This document shows, in pieces, positions 4,170 to 37,914 of a stretch of 64,000 bases of DNA. The notes under the pieces are model-generated. The model did not search any database. It was not told where the DNA came from and saw only the letters and a program-made list of their open reading frames with translations. The stretch is taken from the NCBI GenBank assembly GCA_036172245.1, contig JAYWIR010000005.1:1116001-1180000 (forward strand), given 5' to 3'. Positions within the stretch are counted from its first letter, which is position 1; each line of letters opens with the position of its first letter. The DNA comes from Raillietiella orientalis. Its lineage: Eukaryota. A program made the position numbers and the translations under genes.

Positions 4170-4432
4170 CGCTCCGGATCCCCTAGGACGCCCTCCAGCA
4201 CGGCTCCAGTGCCCTCTTCTTCCTCCGGTGACCCCTTCCCGGACCTTTCAATTTCTTGCAGATACATTTTTTTGTTTCCCTCCCCCTTTGCTGCCGAGGC
4301 GAACCTCGCCGGCCTGTACGCCAGTTCTTATCAGGTTCCCATGGTCACATTTGTAACGTGGCGGGACCAAGAGTCCTGCCATTGAATTGTATGTTTATAT
4401 TATATAAATAAATGCCCTGGAGCAACCCGGTG
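4170..4432 (+). mobile_element. Short LINE 3' end
   Basis: GTGACCCCTT stop context, T-rich tract, both internal hairpins, AATAAA at 4407 and terminal hairpin. Confidence 0.75.
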
Positions 4433-4440
4433 TCAACCAG

Positions 4441-5388
4441 GCAAGGTGGAAGTGTCCTGCTGCATTGCAGGAAGAAAGAGGTCACCAAGTATGTGGACAA
4501 TTCGGCAGATCACGGACGCTGCGACCCCGAGTATGGGGTTTCGCCCCATGGACTTCTACGCTCGACATCCCTTTGGAGGAGGTGAAGTGGCTTCCAGAGT
4601 GCTGGAACAGTGGTGTCCTCCCCCTCAAGTGGCAGGAGTTGGCTTTGGAGGTGGTGCATGGGGGAATCCATGAACCACCGGTAAGGCTGCAAGGCCGACG
4701 CACTGCCTCCAGCCGCATCACTCGCAGGACTCCGCTGTCTTCTGCGTAATCGTGGCGGCCTGGAAAGCGGGAAGAGGAGGCCGGAATGGCAGGGACGCAA
4801 TCCACCGGGCGCGGATCTTCCCGAAGACCGCCTCGAGATGGCCCCACTTGGAAGAAGAAATAACAAAACTTGTCAGCATCCTGTACAGGATGCGGAAGAC
4901 GTCTCGCGGCGAGACGTGATCCATTACCTCAAAACTTTTCCTCCCCCTTTTTTTGTTTTTGTTTTGCGGTTTTCCCTCCCCCTTTGTGTCTGGAGCGGAC
5001 CCCGCCGGTCTCCCTACCGGTGACCGGCAAGTTGGACGCGGAAAAAGTCGGGACCGAAGAGGCCCGCGAGCAGGGAGACGCTCGCCATATTGTGAACCTG
5101 GTACTTGGAGACGCGGTTCAGGAACCCGAAGAAGTACTTCAGGGCGTTGTAGTTGATGACGGGCATGGAGCCCAGGAGGGCGCGCAGCCTCATGATGAAG
5201 AGCACGTGGTTGGCGCAGCAATCTGCAAAGGCGGAGGCGGCAGGTCAAGTCGACGGGAAGGGACGGTGCGTCCGAGGTACTTTTCTAAATGGCCACGAAG
5301 GTGGCGTTCAAGACGGGTGGGATGATCATTCGTATGTCCTTTTATTACTATTTTAATAATAAATACCCCAGCACAACCAGGCGAAAAA
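4441..5388 (+). mobile_element. LINE 3' fragment carrying the captured FAM13 piece in its 3' UTR
   Basis: ORF2 end at 4441-4919, hairpin 1 at 5004-5021, FAM13 insert at 5036-5325, AATAAA at 5358 and a degenerate terminal hairpin. Confidence 0.8.
5036..5325 (-). pseudogene. Duplicated exon-intron-exon fragment of the FAM13 RhoGAP domain, embedded in a LINE 3' UTR
   Basis: Colinear with 15288-15583. It keeps the intron (5223-5280, 58 nt versus 63 nt) with GT/AG ends and has a TGG>TAG stop at 5287-5285. Confidence 0.92.
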
Positions 5389-5394
5389 CCACGC

Positions 5395-6320
5395 CCTCAC
5401 TATGAAGGTTTGGCGGGAATACGGTGTGCAGATTGAGGAGGATCACCTCGACAGCAGAGGAGAGGGGAAGAAACAGAACAAAATATAAATGACTTGGGGT
5501 GCACGGGAAGCGATCGCAGCCTGCTGGGGTCTGCCCTCTGTATCCTCTCAAGGATACCGGCAAGTTCTTCCTGCATGGTCATCCGGTGGGACATCTCATT
5601 GCCCTCCGCAAGAATACGTAGGACGAAATGGGTGGAGTCCCTCGCGCGGCCGCCTTCTTTGGAGTCTCTCCAGGCCACCATGATCCCGCGCAGGCAACAA
5701 AGAGATGCTGAGGATGCGCCTGGAGATAGAGCGTCGAGCACGAAGAGGGGCTGCCACGCGTTCCTGGGGTTGTCGCGTGGGGTCCGGATGGTCGTCGCCG
5801 CGCAGCGGTCGCTGGGCAACGCAGTCGACGAGCAGATGCTGGAGGGATTACTGTTCTCGCTCCTGCTGAAGTTCAAGTCACCCTTCCCCTACTCCCCGTG
5901 TCCAGTTACGTCGGCGTACGTTGCATGGAAGGACCCAGTGCCACAACAGAAGCGCCGACTCCTGCCCCTTAAGAGGGAAGGAGCGGCTGTTCGGGAGCAC
6001 TGGGGCCCACTCGAGGTTTCAGGGGGATTTCCTAGCTCCTGGAGCACATCTCGCAGGAGACGTCCCATTCTGCCGGTGGGACATCACTGCCGATGTCCTC
6101 TCTCGGGGAGGATTTCCGCGGTCAGGGAGGCTCCTTCCGCTCACGCACGCTCGGTGGGACGCGCGACGATTCCTCTGGAGAGAGCAGTTGCTGCACGAGA
6201 GGCGCAGCAACAGCTGCCGTGACCTCGCGGCTCGGCTCATTAGCCTTCCTCCACCGTACGAACCGTTTTCAGCAGCCGGGCATCACCGTTCGCCGAGAGG
6301 CAGGATGTCCAGGCTCTCTC
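5395..6320 (-). mobile_element. Decayed LINE ORF2 C-terminal fragment
   Basis: ORF 5400..5876 contains ASLCCLRGIMVAW...EELAGILERIQ. The upstream part matches WxSCLxAN..LLKTVRT. Confidence 0.8.
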
Positions 6321-9136: not shown

Positions 9137-10390
9137 CGCTGCGGTTATGCAAGTGAGCTCCCATCACCAGATTTCCAGTTTCCCAGAGGGGCTGGTTCAG
9201 CACTCTGGTGCCACCAATTGAAACAGCTGATTCTTCTCACGAAACCTACCATTTCGGTACGAACCCAGGCGCCAGCAGCCACGGCATGCTCGGACCCTAC
9301 ACCGAACGCGCCAGTTTCCTCCATGTTGGTGGCGCATCGAACAAGGAGCTCTCGTGGGCGGTACACAAGTCGTAAAGAAAACGTCCCGACCGGACCGGTC
9401 TCTGGGCTTTCGTAATGGGCAACCCCGGCCGCACATTATAAAGTCGAATGACTCTCGGCCCAGTCTCGGGACAATCTCGTCGCAACCCCACCGACACCCC
9501 AGAATTTTCACTTTACACCACAGGTGCGCGTGGGGCCACAGATTTCCGTGAATCGAATCTCTGCCGGTAGCCCCGACTTGGATTTTCAACGATTTTCATA
9601 AGCTACACGTCACCGACGCTCGACACTGTTGGAATATTACATATTCATGAGGACTCCATGCATGCGTGGCGTTCATGCACTCAGCTGCAACTACCACCAA
9701 AGATGCAATTTTCAATATTGCCAGTCTCGCACGCCCACTTAGGTAATCATCATCCATCACCACATTGGTCTCGTGACACATCTGAAGAGCCAGTCGCGAT
9801 GTGGGGGAATTCTCCTGTGATTATTCTTGACCTGCAAATGAATCGAGGCGAAATGAGAGTTCAGTGGGGTGGGGAAGCGGCGATCCGTCAGCGGGAGGAA
9901 AGCAAACGGGAGCGGGGGTACTCCTGACTGCCGCAGGCGTCGCTGGGTTCGCCTCGAGCTCGCGGAGCGCCGCCATCTGCCGGGAGTGCTGCCAACTAAC
10001 TCGTCGTTGCGGCGAACCCTGGCCTCCGGCCCGCTCTCGCTTCTTCTGGAGACGGCGATCCTGTAGTGGAAGAGCCCGCGCAAGGCTGCAGGCGAGCGGG
10101 GACCCTCCTGAGATCGAGAGCATGCGGGCCAGGAGCCGGTGGCTTGCAATGCGTGCCACCGGCCCCTGCAGCAGCCGGTAACGACCTTTGACCGTCCATC
10201 TCCCTGGCGCCGTCGGCTGGACGCCCCGGCATCTTTCGACGGGCAACCCGGGACCCAAGGACCGCATCCCCGGGAGCAAGGAGGGACAGCAGCTTTCGCC
10301 AGTCATCTTTTATTTCAATCAGCTGGGTGCTGGAGGCCACGAAAGCGGAGCGCCATTCCGACTTCCCGCGTTGCGCTGCGGGCGTCGCCT

Positions 10391-13300
10391 TCAGGTGAAG
10401 GCCCTGGACGCACGCTCCTGCTTGCTGATCAAGGCTTCCAGAAGGCGTAAGCGGCTCTTGACCAGCCTGTACATGCTGTACATTTCCTCCAATCCGTCGC
10501 GATCTTCTTTTTGCGCCACCCTGCCGTGGATTTGATAGAAGGCGTCCTCGTACTCTCTGAGGATCCTCCGCAACCGTTTCTTCTCCTCCTTGGCGAGATA
10601 CTGCTCCGACAAGAGTTCGTCCCTGTAAAGACAACACACCCCGTGTCCATGTGCGGAGGATGGAGGCGGGAGGAGGAGCAATTGGCGCCGAGCAATTCAA
10701 GCTCGCGGAAGACAAGCGGACTGTCCGTCGCTTGGGACAGCCCCCCAGAGAGAGAGGAAGGGTGGGGGAAGGAGCAGAGGTGGGAAAAGGGCAAAGCATG
10801 AGAACCCAGCCGCCGGGACGCTCGTATGGTTGGCGGGTGAAGGCAGCGCCCCCGAGAGGTTCGCTGCTCAATGAAGAGGAAGCTGAGCTCAGGCAACCAC
10901 CGCCCCCGCAAGGCGTTTTTCTCTCGGACGACAAGTCGCCGCAACCTCCGACGCTTTGCTCGCGCAAGGACCGCGGGGTCGAGGTGCGCCGCCGGCTCGC
11001 GGGGGTGTGCGACAACAACCAACTCTTTTTCGTGTGTGCTTTCAGACCCTTTTTGCTTTCTTCCGAGGGCAGCAGCACCTCGCCAACTTTTCACGCTTCG
11101 ACTCACCATCGTGCTGGAGATGTGCGCCATCGCGTGCACTGCGAGCCGCGAGCGCAGTCCGCATTCGCTCAGCGCAGTAAGTGGCGGGGGTCGCCGCCTT
11201 TGCGCGTTGCTTTCCAGTGTCCCGCGGAAGATCGCAGTGGGGAGGGGTGATAGAGAAGGCACCTGCCCCGGGTGAGCTCAGAGGGCTGCTTCGGGCTGTC
11301 GGAGCTCCGCACCCGCTTCGGAGGGGGAGGGAGGGGAGGAGGATGGGGTGGAGCCGGGAGAGTCGTTTCCTCCTTCACGGGCGTCGGCAGGTCGGAGGAG
11401 GGAAAGACGAGGGCGCGTTCAAAGGTCGGGCTGGGAGTGCGGCCGAGGGCGGAAGCGTGGAATGAAACGAGAAGCCGGAAGGAGGTGGCTCGCCGAATGC
11501 AGCTCCCTCCGTGAGGGGGGAAGGCTGGGGGGGAAGGGGGGGCAGCGACAAGACAGCAGCCGTGGGAACGCGACGGAGGCGAACAATCGGGGGGAGGGGC
11601 GCGGCCGTTTGCTTTTCTTCGTTTCCCCAATCGCGCGGCAGCGGAAACGGGGAGCCGACTTCCGGAGACGGCGGAAACGCGGGAGGGGGAGGAACAAGAC
11701 CTGCCGGAAGGAAGGACGGTCGCGCGGAGGCCGGGAGAGGGACTGAAGCGGGAAATCCCCCTCGCCGGGAAGCGAAGGAAGCCGAGGGGGCCTCGAATGC
11801 CTGCTGACGGTAGCTCCCCCGGTCGTCCTCGACGAAAGGAGCAGGCAGGGGCCGGGATGAAGGGCGCCGCACTCACAGGGACAGAGAATGTATGTTCCTG
11901 GACCAGGTGGCCGAGGTCGCGGAGCGTTCGCTGGAAGGGGAGCGGGCGGCGCCGGCGCCGCGCCGCCTGGACCCGTGGCGCGGCGAGGCGAGGGTGAAAT
12001 CCATGGCCACGTTCTCCAGGATTGGCTCCAGCTCGTCCTGCGGGTGCCGGGAGGGCGGTGAGAGGGGAAGGGAAGAGGGGGAAGGCGCACCTACCGCAGC
12101 CTCCTCCGCAGCCGCAGCGGCGGCCGCCGTCCGCAGGAGGGCGCGCTTGATGCTGCGGAAGTGCTCGCAGGCCGAGCCGGAGAGGTGATCGCCGTCGTCT
12201 TCCGGGAGTCCCGCCGCGCGGCGACCCTTTTTCTCACGCTTCTGGAGCAGCCTCTGACGAGCAGCACGGCAACAACGAGACGAGGGAAGGGAGGAGAAGA
12301 AAAAAAAACACCCCAAAAAACAAAAAGGGAAGAGGGAATCAAAGATAGCGAAAGAACGACGACGGGTCGAACCTGCTCGATCCCGGCGACGATCTCACGG
12401 GCGACGCTAGGGCTCGCAGCCGCTGCCAGGCGCCCTCGCGGCCCCCCCCACTCCCTGCGGACGGGTCCCAGGACGCGCCGCGGGCGCAGCTCTTCCAGGC
12501 GGTCCAGCTTGGCCAGGCGGTATTCCGTCTGCAGGTCCAGGTCCTCCTCTTCCTCCGAGGGTCTGCGCTGCTGCAGGCGGCCGCTGGGGAGGGACGGAGG
12601 GGCTGAGAGGCGGGGCCGGAAAGGGGCTGCCTACCTGTGGGAGCGCTTCTTGCTCAGCTGCCGCTGCTCGCCGCAGCAGTCGACGACGCCCTTCTTGCGG
12701 AGGCCCCTAGAGGGGGCAGCGAAGGCCTTGGACGACAGCAGCTCCTCCCCGCCCTGAGAGGCAAAGGATACGGCCTTCGCTCCGGCGATCCCGCCGCCCA
12801 CCCGAGCACCTTACCTGCGCGTAGTTCTCGACATAGGACCTCAGTTTCCTGCTGACCACCGGCTCCTCATCGGACGAGAAGTCGAAGGGCCACGTGAGGG
12901 ACGAGGAGGACGAAGGGCCCCTAGCCCCGCCCTGCTCCCCACCGCCGCACGGCACCGGGAGAGCCTCGGCGAAGGCCGCCGCCTGCAGGTCCTGCTCCCG
13001 TTCGCCCGCCAAGCTATGCAGGTTACCTTGGGAACGGAAGAGCGCCGTCTCCTGCGGGGAAGGAGTCCGCGATGAGAGGCATTGGGGGATGGGATCGCAT
13101 CGGGGGCAGAACTCTCGAAGGAGGGGGGGGGGGGGAGAAAGACGTACCGGAAAGGCGGAGTCCCGTAGGAGGAAATGCCGGCTGCCCTTCGGGCTGCGCG
13201 GGAAGGACTCGAAGCGGCCCGAGTAACGCCAGCGCTCCGGGCAGTCTTCGTCATCCGCCCGCTGGCGGCACTCCTGCGCCTCCCTAGACAGGGAGGAAGG

Positions 13301-16104
13301 GCCGGGCGCGAGGCGCCCCCGGCTAGCCGCGCCGCCCCTGTCGTCACGGTGGACCTCCACACAGATGGGCAGCGAGCGGGGGTTATCCTGGGGCCTGCAA
13401 CAGAGCGGAAGGAACATTCACTGGCGATCTCTGCGCGCGCAAAGCAAGGGAAGGAGCCGGGCGACGAGGCGGCGCTGGGCGCGCTTCATCCTCTCCCCCC
13501 CTGGCGCAGAGGGTGAGCAGCGAATTTCGAGTCCCTCCTCACCGACGCCGCGAGCGGCCGGCTCTCCACCCAAGCGGGGTGTCCGCATCCGAGAGGGCGT
13601 TGCTCCCTGGAGAAAGAAAGTTCTTTGCCCTGGCCCCGGGCAAGGTTGTGCACGACAGCGAGGGCACAGAAAGAGTCCTCAAAACAGCAGGAAGTCGGCG
13701 CTGACACCCCGCCTCTGCTACTGCTGCGGCTAGGAGCGAAGAAGGGAGCGACCCTTCCTGGGGCATCCTCTCCTTCCGTCATCAACCAGCCCCGCACAGC
13801 AACGGACGGAAATGCCAGGAAGGGAGGCACAGCCTGCCGGATCGCTCGCAGCACCGCCTCGCGGCGTTGAAGAGAACTACTCGGACTCCCTCGACCACAG
13901 GCATCCCGGCGAACCGCGCGCGCGCGCGCGCTGACCCGGTACGCCGCCGCCGTGGGTTCGCTCGCCGTGGATGCAGAGCCTTTCCCACCCCCTTTTCTCC
14001 TTCCCGGGCACGGAAAGGTCAGCGGGTGACTTGGGGATCGGAGGGGAAGAAGTTCCTTTATCCTCCCAGAGAGTGAGCCACTGGAACGCCGGCGCGCGCG
14101 TTCCGGTGGCGCGCGCGCGTTCCTCGTGTGTCCTCCCTGCCATCCGAGTGGTGCCCGTGGTGGATCGGCGACACGTCGGTTGCCGCGCTCCGCCACCTCC
14201 GTGGGGGAGCTTCTGCCCCAGCAGTCACCGCCGCCGCAACGCAGCAACCAGTGGCACGCACTGGCAGCTTGCGGGACTCGCTGCGGCTCCTCCCCGGAGG
14301 AACCAGTAAACGGCGCAGCCCCGGACACGGTCGGGAAGAACCGTTCCGTCCTAGAGAACCACCGCTTTCTCCAGCCGCGCCTTCCCCACGGATCCAACTC
14401 CCAAGGTCTCCCGATACAGGGAAGGGTTGGCCACGTTCCGGCCCGATTCCTTGTTTCCGAGGAAACGTAGCGGCGGGGCTCTAGATGCGCCCCAGGACGC
14501 CGTTACAGAGGGATGGCATCGCCCCCCGGGACGCAGGACAATACTACCGCCACCAGGAGGCGCGCGCGCTCGAAAGTGGGTGGATCGGTGTGGCTGCTAC
14601 GGGTCGGAAGTGACTGCGCTGTGACGGGAATTGGCAAGGAACGACTGTGGGAGCCAGGGAGGTCCGAAGGTCCGTGGCGCAAGAGCCGTTGCGACGGGGC
14701 TGCATGCCCTCCCGTCTATGGATTGAAAGGAGGACTGTACCCACCCCCCTTCCGATAAACCGCCGACGGACAAGGCGAAAGCCGGCTAGCGGAAGCTTCT
14801 CGTCCTCGGACATTTCGGTTGATCCCCCGCGAGATGTCGCTCCTCTGGCCGGGCCGAGCACGAGTTCCGTCCGGCCCAGGAAGCATGGAGGCAAAACTCC
14901 TCCTACCGGAAACCGCCTGGAGGAGCGCGCCTCCCCGCGGAGGGAGGCGGCGGCCGGCGGCAGGACCGGAAACTCAGAGCAGAGATGAAGTCCAAACGGA
15001 GAGCGGACGACTGGGTAGGCCGTGCGTCCGGACGGCGCGCGGGCCAGCCGCGCCCTCCTTAGTGCGGCCGCATGACGGCGGTTCTCCTCCGCACCCCCTT
15101 TCCCCCTCTTCCTTTCGCACGCCCACCACGCGGAAACATCCGAGGCTCGAGGGGGGCCGTGGGACGGCACCGCTCTTCGCCAACGTGGGAGGGCGCCACT
15201 CACCCGCGTAGGAAGGTCTCCTCGTACGTGCTGATGAGGTGTACGAACACTCGATTCGTTGCCACCCGTTCGTGAGATCCTCCGCACACACGGAAGAAGT
15301 CGGGTCCGAAAAGGCCCGCGAGCAGGGAGGCGCTCGCCATATTGTGAACCTGATACTTGGAGACGCGGTTCAGAAACCCGCAGAAGTACTTCAGGGTGTT
15401 GTAGTTGATGACGGGCATGGAGCCCAGGAGGGCGCGTAGCCGCTTGATGAAGAGCACGTGGTTGGCGCAGCAATCTGCAAAGGTGGAGGCGACGGGTCAA
15501 GTCGACAGGGCGGGGCGGGGTGAGGCCCGCGCGGTACCTTTCCAAATGGCCACGAATGTGGCATTCAAGACGGGCGGGATGACGGGCTGCGGGAGCTCGT
15601 GTAAGAACAGTTTCAGTAGGGAAACAGCGGCGGGAACGTCGATTTCCTCGGTGAGGGTCACATCCGTGTGATCGTCGAAAGCCTGGCGCAGCTGCTGGAC
15701 CCGCTCGTAGCTGCCGGCGATCCGAAACAAGCCCTGGATCCGCAAACCTGCAGCAGCAAGGAAAACGGAAAAAGGGGGGGTAGAGGGCCGCTTTCCCTCG
15801 CCTCCCCTCCTCCCCTCCTAAGGGCGGCGGGCCCACCTTGCTCCTCGATGAAGGTGCACAGCCGCACCATGATGAAAGGCACTTGGGGGTCCCGCGGCGC
15901 GTCCGAGTGGGAAAGCAGGGAGTGCAGCTCGACCCCGAACACGGGGCGCTTCCTGGCGTCCGGGTGCTCGCGCGCGGGCCGCTGCCGCAGGCCGACTCCA
16001 TCATCTCCTTGCTCATTGTCGTCCAAACCAATGGGAACGGGGAAGCTGCTGCCTTCCCAGTCGTTCCTCCTCTTCTCGTCGACGCAGAGCGCCGGTCTTC
16101 GCAT
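10391..16104 (-). CDS. FAM13: FAM13-family Rho GTPase-activating protein (RhoGAP domain plus C-terminal FAM13 coiled coil), at least 10 exons, about 704 aa in the minimal model
   Basis: Phase-consistent GT-AG exons: 16104-15837, 15747-15538, 15474-15204, 13394-13148, 13051-12815, 12753-12635, 12583-12373, 12253-12095, 12037-11877, 10622-10391. RhoGAP motifs are FGVELHSL...GLFRIAG (Arg finger), SLLKLFLHELPQPVI and LAGLFGPDFF. The C-terminus NIHSLSLDELL...EEKKRLRRILREYEDAFYQIHGRVAQKEDR...YRLVKSRLRLLEALISK matches the FAM13A/B tail. The start codon and any extra exons in 13395-15203 are uncertain. Confidence 0.9.
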
Positions 16105-35200: not shown

Positions 35201-36225
35201 GAGCGTTCCGCCGTCCGGCGATCGCACCGCTCGCTGACGGATCGAAACCGCCCATTCCGTTGGGGGCAACTCCACCACCTGGATAGGCGCTCTGCAAATG
35301 CTGAGGTTGAACGCCAACGTGCGCTTGGCAACGCGTTGCCGGGGTTTAGCGTGTTCTCAGACGGTGAACACCACGCGGCGTGCTTGCGCCATACGCGCCG
35401 CATACGCTTGAAGCATTACTCGTGGACGCGCCGCCGCGTCCCAGTAAGCGCTCCGGAAGCCATGCGACGGAAGAAGCGTTTTTGTTGTTGCCCCCCCCCC
35501 CTTCCTTCCTTCCGTCCCGACCCCACGGGCCGGAGGGATTCGTTGGGAACGTCGAAACTGAAAGTTTCGCTCCGCCGTCTGCGGAGGCGGTGGCGCAGCG
35601 TGAAAGCGAGCTCAGATAGTGGCGGCGGCAGTATGGGCGCGCGTTTTGTGCTCACGGATCACGGCGTGGTAGATAACCGCAGCCCCCGGCCTCCCCCAAT
35701 GACTTGACGTCACGAGCGCTGGAAACGGCCTCCTCGCAGCGCAAAAGTCGATCCCTATCGTACGCGGAGGCGGTTTCCGCCCTCCCCCCCCCCGCTGCTC
35801 TCCGAAACATCCCGTATCGGGCCCGGGTGGGAGACAGCATCGAGGGTGTGTTTGGGGAACGAAGGAAAGGAAAGATCCGAACGCAGCGCATCTCTGGCAC
35901 CCAAGCGCTGATCCCCTCGCGAGAAATTTCGCCCTTCTCGACGGGGCGGGCGTTCCGCGAAACAGCGGCGTGGACCTTCGACAAGCCGCCAGCACGGCGC
36001 GGAGTAGGGAGCGTGCACGCGCAAAGTCGAGAACCTCTCTTTCTCTTGCAGACGGGGGATTTCCCGCGCTCGCGAACGATTTTCCCTTCTGCTGTTTCTT
36101 GCCCTTCCCCCCTCCCCCATCCCCGCGGGTTGCCATGGCATCTGGCGCTGTAAACGATCGGAGCCTCGATCCACATCGATGGCGCACACGAAACGCGAGT
36201 CTCCTTCACCCGTCCAAGCATTCGA

Positions 36226-37914
36226 TTTTCACCCGGGTTTCGCCGGGGCGTTCATTAAAAAATAAACCTTGACAAAGACGTGCTGTGGCTGGACCAATGC
36301 TCCAGCCACGCCCGAAGAAACAACACAGAGCCTGCCGGGCCACCGGTTCGCAGACCGGTACGGTCCACCACGGCAGCAGGGGGGAAGGGGGAAAGATAAA
36401 AAACTAAACAAAAAGAAAACAAAAAGTGGGAGGGTACGGGAAGGGATCACAGTAGCTGCTGGGGCCGCTGCATCCTTCGCAGGATGCCGGCAAGCTCTTC
36501 CTGAATGTTTGGATCCAGGTGGGGCCATCGCGTCGTCCACTCCAAAAATTCGTCGGTGCGCTGAATGGCACCCTTATCACGAGGACCTCCTCCCGCAGCC
36601 TTGCTCCAAGCGGCGACGATCCCGCGAAGGCAGCACAGGGCTGCTAACGAGGCCGCAGGCCGAAGGGCTTCGGCAACGAAGAGGGCTTTTATAGCGTCCC
36701 TGCGGTTGCCGCCGGGGATTCCGATGACCGCCGCAAAGCGTAGTCAAAGGGACCGAAGGGCAACACAATCCACAAGGAGGTGGGGGAGGGACTCCCGTTC
36801 CCCACACCTAACGCAATTTGGGTTCACCGCTCCCCAGGTCCAATGGTGTCGGCGGGCGTTGCACGGGAGTCCCCAGTGCTGCAACAGTAGAGCCGACTCC
36901 TGCCATTTTAAGGGGAGGGTGGAGGTGTTCATGAGCACCGGGGGCCACTTCAGACGTTCAATGGGAACATCGAGCAGCGCGCCCCAGCGCAGAAGTCCAT
37001 GGGGAGGCGTACTCGGGGTCGCAGCGTCCGTTAGCTGGCCCGTCTTCCACTCTCCTATCTTCCTCTCCCTTCCGGAGATTGTAACTGTAACCTCCCACTT
37101 CACCGCAACATCGCTGTCCAGATCTTCCACTAGGGAGGCCAGCGCAGCAGCGAGGGGGATTCTTCCTGCCCACGCTCTCTTCTTTGGATCCTCCAGGATC
37201 TCTCGGAGCGTGCAACTTTTATAGCTCCCAAACAGGAACCGTCGTTCCTGTTGGGCGCGTGGCATGCCGCTCTGTGCCCACGTGCGAACGGTTTCCTGCA
37301 ACCAGGCACTATCGTTCGCGGGGCGACAGGTGATCCATCCTTGATTTTCCCGAATCAAGGCTGCCACCCTCCGTAGCTGGAGCCCACATCGGTTGATGCG
37401 GGAGCGATGGAGTGAAAGAAAGGACGTGAGCCCCGTCTTGCCGGTGGCTTTCTTGACGAGGAGACGTTCAGGGACGCACCAGCAGGTGCTCCACAACTCC
37501 AGCACAAAGGCCATCATCCTGAACTGGAGCTGAAGCTCCAGCCGCTCCAGTCAAGAGCACGAGACCGTCGTCCTGACGCGGAGCGCACAAGTCCTTTAAG
37601 CGGACTCGGGCCCTCCCGTTGCCCCAAAGGGCGATACGGAGGAGGTCCTTTGTCCGCTTTTTAATCCTCTCTGTGGGGGGGCAAACAAAAAGCAGGGGGC
37701 GGAGGAGAGGAGCCGCGAACGTGTTCCAAACCGCGGTCCGTTCCGGCAGGAAAAACCTGCCGCCTTGGAACGGGCCGATCGTCGTCTCTACTTTTTGGAG
37801 GCAGCGCGACCACTCTTCCACAGGGGAATAGTCCCCAACGGCACACCAAGGTACTTGAAGTACCTCACCGTGGGGATCCCCAAGCGGACCCAGTCCTGCT
37901 GCCCTGCCCACGCC
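36226..37914 (-). mobile_element. Least-decayed 5'-truncated L1/Tx1-like LINE with a 13-bp target-site duplication
   Basis: TCCAAGCATTCGA occurs at 36213-36225 and 37915-37927. ORFs 37468..37923 and 36744..37517 cover the RT C-terminus to the CCHC knuckle with few lesions. The 3' terminus is complete. Confidence 0.92.

Follow-up and report, generated by a model that had tools for sequence, protein, structure and literature searches.

A piece of a neighbouring FAM13-like gene in the 3' UTR of a decayed LINE of Raillietiella orientalis, most likely a repair scar

Results

The window is the whole analysed stretch of Raillietiella orientalis DNA, 64,000 nt long. We found two features in it that share a piece of sequence, a gene on the minus strand and the decayed end of a LINE on the plus strand (Table 1). 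Two exons of the gene match Pfam RhoGAP (E 5e-15 and 7e-10), and its last exon (10394-10621) resembles the FAM13A-like domain PF26116 (Atlas score 0.90, 211/256 features). On the other hand, the local Pfam copy gave no FAM13 match for this gene, a protein search for homologues of the RhoGAP exon gave no significant match among 52 candidates, and a comparison of this exon with solved structures gave weak RhoGAP matches only. A preliminary description of this DNA had called the gene FAM13. The likeness of the last exon speaks for that name, but since neither Pfam nor the protein search confirmed it and the last exon alone resembles PF26116, 'FAM13-like' seems a fair name. An AATAAA of this gene lies at 10309-10314, which places the shared piece in the LINE about 5 kb beyond the 3' end of the gene. 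To the left, about 27 kb from that piece, is the end of a plus-strand CaMKII gene, which is convergent with the FAM13-like gene.

Table 1. Features of the LINE copy, the inserted piece (patch) and the FAM13-like locus, in window coordinates
Feature	Position	Strand	Evidence or remark
ORF2 end of an APE/RT/zf-RVT (L1/Tx1-type) LINE, 5'-truncated, decayed	4440..4919	+	tblastn with the L191 ORF2, three-frame translation
Left portion of the LINE 3' UTR, with the pyrimidine tract and hairpin 1, as far as the left junction	4920..5038	+	family comparison
Left junction	5036..5038	+	microhomology 0-3 nt; ACG in LINE and patch, ACA in the present-day gene
Patch, copy of the downstream RhoGAP exon (source 15288-15474)	5036..5222	-	187 nt, 12/187 bases differ
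Patch, intron copy	5223..5280	-	58 vs 63 nt, 10 mismatches, 2 gaps, GT..AG kept
Patch, copy of the 45 nt at the end of the upstream RhoGAP exon (source 15538-15582)	5281..5325	-	5/45 differ; Trp-to-stop at 5285-5287
Right junction	5323..5326	+	TGAC (ATGAC in some relatives) common to donor and LINE relatives; last base now T in the patch
Right portion of the LINE 3' UTR, with the AT-rich tract, AATAAA, a damaged terminal hairpin and the 3' end	5326..5390	+	family comparison, fold
Final coding exon of the donor, with the FAM13A-like domain and the stop	10391..10621	-	Atlas likeness
Second two-copy stretch of the FAM13-like locus, apparently intronic	13705..14099		395 bp, 98.2% identical to C5:1114146-1114540 (L187), 15 kb away
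Donor: RhoGAP exon-intron-exon of the FAM13-like gene	15288..15582	-	self-BLAST, genome DNA and protein searches, Pfam
Donor intron	15475-15537	-	63 nt

Measured against a reference frame of 1217 aa, the LINE copy keeps roughly residues 1000-1211; its reading frame changes, and about 54 codons are deleted near 4668. It has no 5' (promoter) end, and the LINE pieces around it face both directions. A related copy (L191) has a stop-free 1217-aa frame in which an APE endonuclease, an RT and a zf-RVT (the last below its curated cut-off) stand together in one ORF2, a combination typical of L1/Tx1 elements; the clade name is a tentative one, given by this domain architecture. The family is abundant, with 679 candidates for the 3' end and a best non-self match of 76% among the 40 that were scored.

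Within the family 3' UTR, hairpin 2 folds most stably (mean z -2.1, with 33/37 copies below their own shuffles), compared with mean z values of -0.6 for hairpin 1 and -1.0 for the terminal hairpin. RNAalifold kept only four pairs across 28 decayed UTR copies, all of them within hairpin 2. In the copy studied here, the terminal hairpin does not form in the fold. In most copies of the family the end is a short terminal hairpin, and a long poly(A) is missing. Between subfamilies, hairpin 2 has lost single bases from both arms in a paired manner. This pattern suggests that an L1/Tx1-type element has a 3' end that is recognised by its structure. The family also nests in its own copies. In L004, L007, L012 and at window positions 4230-4445, a LINE 3' end is followed directly by another 5'-truncated copy in the same direction, and in the first three of these the second copy begins near the ORF2 end, where the sequence is similar to the 3' terminus of the element itself.

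A self-BLAST of the window matched 5036-5325 to 15288-15582 on the same strand, with 89.2% identity over 295 columns and 2 gaps (E 1e-106). This 290-nt patch, whose donor lies 10 kb away, is antisense to its host LINE. On the minus strand, the donor runs from 45 nt of one exon through a GT..AG intron of 63 nt into 187 nt of the following exon, and the patch repeats this layout with an intron of 58 nt that has kept its GT..AG and with one Trp codon turned into a stop. The preliminary description had reported the 290-nt match, with an end at 15583 that is one further base of microhomology, and had described its content as parts of two RhoGAP exons and their intron in antisense to the LINE; both statements hold, the latter through the GT..AG intron and the Pfam RhoGAP matches. 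That description had also proposed a search for further chimeric copies. In the 210-Mb genome, a DNA search gave the patch and the donor as the sole matches (both of two candidates), and a protein search gave the same two among three candidates, each count being a lower bound. A single-copy patch therefore stands 10 kb from an intact parental locus, as judged from these at least two genome-wide matches.

We then investigated the junctions. Seven close relatives have hairpin 1, then 29 nt of hairpin 2, and then a tail like that at 5326-5390. The host LINE lacks these 29 nt, which are exactly hairpin 2, and the patch stands in their place, confirming the position between hairpin 1 and the AATAAA/terminal hairpin given in the preliminary description. 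The right junction has a microhomology of 4-5 nt (the chance of at least 4 nt is about 1.6%), and that at the left junction amounts to 3 nt only if the donor once had a G there, and otherwise to 0 nt. Around the element ends no target-site duplication (TSD) of at least 7 nt was found, and there is no poly(A) at the patch. The first 24 nt past the right junction are best matched by L006, L128 and L005, which rank 1, 6 and 4 for the left flank among 102 UTRs, a sample enriched for relatives retrieved with these very flanks. The top-20 lists for the two flanks share nine UTRs (P 0.003), whereas over the full set the two rankings correlate weakly (rho 0.19, P 0.053). The overlap of these rankings and the register of the flanks, 29 nt apart, indicate that the patch is inside one LINE element, with sequence foreign to transposable elements between two parts of the same copy. 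An origin of 5326-5388 from an unrelated copy had been set beforehand as the observation that would speak against a captured fragment, and this objection falls with the three relatives that match both flanks. In one public DNA run (share of words 0.10), searched at 85% likeness over 4200-6200, 11 of 30 bins were covered at a depth below 10, and from 5004 on nothing aligned, contigs of the donor gene included.

Patch and gene differ at 11 silent and 10 intron positions and by 6 amino-acid-changing differences, which gives divergences of 0.205 for silent sites, about 0.17 for the intron and 0.034 for replacement sites. In simulations under four mutation models, a neutral copy of today's gene is expected to carry more replacements than the patch does (P 0.02-0.085). 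For comparison, the ORF2 end of the LINE differs at 10/118 or 6/75 replacement sites in conserved codons (8-8.5%), against 6/174 (3.4%) in the patch (Fisher P 0.07 and 0.19), and at 2/76 (2.6%) of the most conserved nucleotide columns, where it does not depart from the patch (P 1.0).

The surroundings are rich in short duplications. We found 17 two-copy pairs in the 464 kb around the window, eight of them at least 85% identical. The members of all eight lie within 38.5 kb of each other, although such distances make up 16.5% of the pair space, whereas three of the nine older pairs are more than 100 kb apart. The patch with its donor is one of the eight, and another is the second piece of the FAM13-like locus; one of the seven control pairs was checked genome-wide, and one lies in LINE sequence. 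The stretch at 13705-14099 occurs twice in the genome and serves as a control for local copying. The beginning of this stretch has a diverged 67-bp echo at a distance of 1.2 kb from the left copy, and for this reason the left side may be the donor of the 395-bp stretch. The LINE pieces at 612-1911 and 36223-37524 are 35 kb apart, 97.8% identical and mutual nearest relatives in a genome search (the next is at 89%), and close local LINE twins are also seen on other contigs (L004/L005, L127/L128 and L109/L112). A 539-bp pair outside the host LINE family (C5:1338619-1339157 and C5:1353111-1353649) is 98.7% identical over a distance of 14 kb. Together, the eight short-range pairs, including the 13705-14099 stretch, and the twins at 612-1911 and 36223-37524 show that local copying happens often here and does not depend on a LINE where the copy lands, at a rate that describes one 464-kb region.

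Among 66 distinct LINE 3' UTRs with room to look, a gene piece was recognised at hairpin 2 in one, the host copy. The other 65 comprise 52 with normal spacing, 3 shorter ones, 3 longer ones (a small duplication in L118, a palindrome in L027 and a tandem neighbour in L111) and 7 without a terminal match, four of which are decayed yet complete by eye while L114, L115 and L136 are cut by other sequence. The interrupting sequence in L115 contains a tRNA-like stretch. We therefore reject gene capture as a habit of the host LINE family for now. Deletions of at least 8 nt in hairpin 2 are present in 4 of 38 intact UTRs, a biased set that was picked for good hairpin-1 and terminal scores, and hairpin 2 as a deletion hot spot would be only a lead. 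Two other inserts were seen in UTRs of this kind. L022:1212-1420 holds about 200 nt of mitochondrion-like sequence in the pyrimidine tract, which is open under code 5, has 19 genome matches, gave no Pfam match and is presumably nad6-like. L027 has a 60-nt palindrome with inverted ends in the AT-rich tract (about 1900-1965), possibly a tiny DNA element.

Discussion

We consider it likely that the patch is a one-off templated insertion, made when a DNA break or a fork was repaired in the germ line. The LINE copy would already have been in place, or would at least have acted solely as recipient. A break would have occurred in its 3' UTR at hairpin 2, hairpins being plausible fragile sites, and one broken end would have annealed over a few bases to the FAM13-like locus 10 kb away, from which about 284 nt of genomic sequence would then have been copied. 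Through the TGAC microhomology the new strand would have returned to the other end, at the cost of 29 nt of the LINE. A length of 284 nt fits synthesis-dependent gap filling or MMBIR-type switching better than a short polymerase-theta patch. We infer the enzymes, the order of events and the inert product. Gap repair is the best supported explanation because of the junction microhomology, the small host deletion, the single copy and the many local duplications. Of the proposals in the preliminary description, gap repair with DNA of the locus 10 kb away is thus favoured, a template switch fits less well, and a possible remobilisation finds no support.

The repair could have used another template than today's gene. 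If this was a diverged FAM13 allele on the other haplotype, or a lost tandem paralogue, that was formerly under selection at the protein level, the patch would preserve, as a fossil, another version of the gene. The high silent and intron divergence next to the low replacement divergence (neutral copy, P 0.02-0.085) would be explained in this way, but the significance is marginal, ancestral polymorphism or faster mutation of the gene body would yield the same pattern, and there is neither a second FAM13 RhoGAP exon in the assembly nor any other decayed FAM13 piece in the 464 kb; we hold such a template to be unlikely. It is more doubtful that the template was RNA, namely an unspliced FAM13 pre-mRNA that was reverse transcribed by a LINE enzyme and filled a break in a nearby dead LINE in random orientation. 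An intron of 58-63 nt is usually spliced fast, and an RNA origin does not predict the short-range clustering of the local pairs; nevertheless, the retained intron and the orientation are both compatible with it, the patch is situated within a transcribed unit, and the genome has LINEs with stop-free ORF2 frames of more than 1000 aa. Class 2 templated insertions (class 2 TSIPs), for which an RNA source has been proposed, likewise have a microdeletion and microhomology and lack a TSD and poly(A), but their donors as described in that account are distant and not nearby DNA (PMC5110952).

Capture in the course of retrotransposition is the worst fit among the mechanisms, and we think it very improbable. 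It could have happened by a double switch from LINE to antisense FAM13 RNA and back to LINE, or by twin priming, where an inverted pre-mRNA piece ahead of a 63-nt LINE tip landed in an older copy. Tripartite chimeras exist (PMC2104539), antisense mRNA/LINE-1 chimeras have been ascribed to twin priming (bioRxiv 10.1101/2025.02.02.635956), the decay comparison leaves the ages of LINE and patch inseparable, and the host family nests in its own copies. However, the chimeras described in these two sources have the foreign piece at the 5' end and flanking direct repeats, and those made by template switching are co-oriented, whereas the patch is internal and antisense, with flanks of one subfamily 29 nt apart and no TSD of at least 7 nt. 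A switch to unspliced sense RNA would as a rule give the orientation of the LINE (PMC2104539), which is not that of the patch, and neither antisense RNA nor twin priming would explain LINE sequence in register on both sides. The pair of TSD and poly(A) that marks class 1 TSIPs and LINE-made retrocopies is also missing here, where a deletion replaces the duplication. Finally, the one public DNA run does not reach the junctions, and an assembly artefact might have fused a repeat and a piece of a gene. After a mis-join the piece would hardly differ from the gene, though, while this copy is 11% diverged, has a stop codon and indels of its own, and is flanked by one LINE that continues in register with microhomology; an artefact is thus very unlikely.

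Templated insertions at breaks are supported in general by PMC11724301. The closest parallel to a repair scar of this kind is found in the single-copy Pack-TIRs of animals, as described by Tan et al. (2021, PMC8277862): 56.9% lie within 15 kb of the parent, 67.6% have microhomology, the gaps have a median of 4.6% of the element, and they are formed without transposition. Our patch shares with them the single copy, a donor on the same chromosome at a distance below 15 kb, breakpoints with microhomology, a small internal gap, the capture of exon together with intron and the possibility of antisense transcription. In contrast to the TIR DNA transposons that host Pack-TIRs, the recipient here is an APE/RT/zf-RVT non-LTR retrotransposon without terminal inverted repeats, and that capture followed insertion is our reconstruction. 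Like the class 2 templated insertions described by Onozawa and Aplan (2016, PMC5110952), the patch falls within the experimental range of 73-414 bp and combines a microdeletion with microhomology in the absence of a TSD and poly(A); unlike those, for which distant donors and an RNA template are favoured, it has its donor 10 kb away. It resembles the U6/L1, tripartite and antisense mRNA/LINE-1 chimeras in that a LINE 3' end is joined to host sequence, but differs from the forms described (PMC2104539; bioRxiv 10.1101/2025.02.02.635956), with a 5'-terminal foreign part and direct repeats, in replacing 29 nt inside the element without a TSD. A literature search covering few subscription journals returned only PMC8277862 on host-gene fragments inside non-LTR elements. 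The patch is most likely a known kind of repair scar, with the LINE recipient as the sole twist.

The patch is most likely inert, judging by its sequence and that of its host. The preliminary description had raised the prospect that the fragment could be mobilised again. We found a single chimera copy, hairpin 2 gone and a terminal hairpin that does not form in the fold, and remobilisation appears unlikely because the host is 5'-truncated and frameshifted and has two 3' hairpins lost or damaged. Some LINEs recognise a 3' stem-loop, and hence the loss of hairpin 2 would probably hamper remobilisation.

We also considered a function in silencing, which the preliminary description had raised. Read-through on the plus strand of the LINE pile-up between the convergent genes could make the patch a working source of antisense small RNAs that tunes FAM13. 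A plus-strand transcript would pair with the FAM13 mRNA (31 of 167 21-mers perfectly, in the long exon, and 130 of 162 26-mers with at most 2 mismatches), the position of the CaMKII gene end makes read-through conceivable, and the genome has nine Piwi-domain matches, two of which look PIWI-clade by their motifs. L183 and L184 are partial or decayed extra copies of the L178 Argonaute gene, and L183 lies 37 kb from L178, beside a retrotransposon-like frame. On the other hand, the host copy lacks its promoter end, the LINE pieces of the pile-up face both ways, read-through from FAM13 would transcribe the patch in sense, and drift at the silent exon sites has gone as far as in the intron, without any hint that selection has maintained pairing with the mRNA. 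Such a role is thus hardly to be expected. Cross-talk from captured fragments has been documented in maize, where exon fragments carried by Pack-MULEs, Helitrons and LTR elements could guide small RNAs to their donor genes as this patch could (bioRxiv 10.1101/777037), and it has been suggested for Pack-TIRs (PMC8277862). The maize cases differ in that they involve plant RdDM and evidence from small RNAs. A literature search on piRNA trans-silencing by gene fragments in arthropods, again covering few subscription journals, found nothing on point. In a wider scheme, which we regard as quite improbable, hairpin 2 would be a fragile site that makes dead LINE copies traps for pieces of neighbouring genes, read-through of the LINE pile-up between the convergent CaMKII and FAM13 genes would yield antisense piRNAs or siRNAs in a feedback loop on FAM13, and the patch might record a lost allele or paralogue.

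The patch would matter more only if its small RNAs acted on FAM13. As a repair scar, it offers a clean, datable case in which gap-filling capture, known from DNA transposons, would also occur in LINE relics, that is, in any DNA that breaks. With about one short local duplication per 60 kb surveyed, antisense exon copies near genes in this genome should be taken as repair scars by default.
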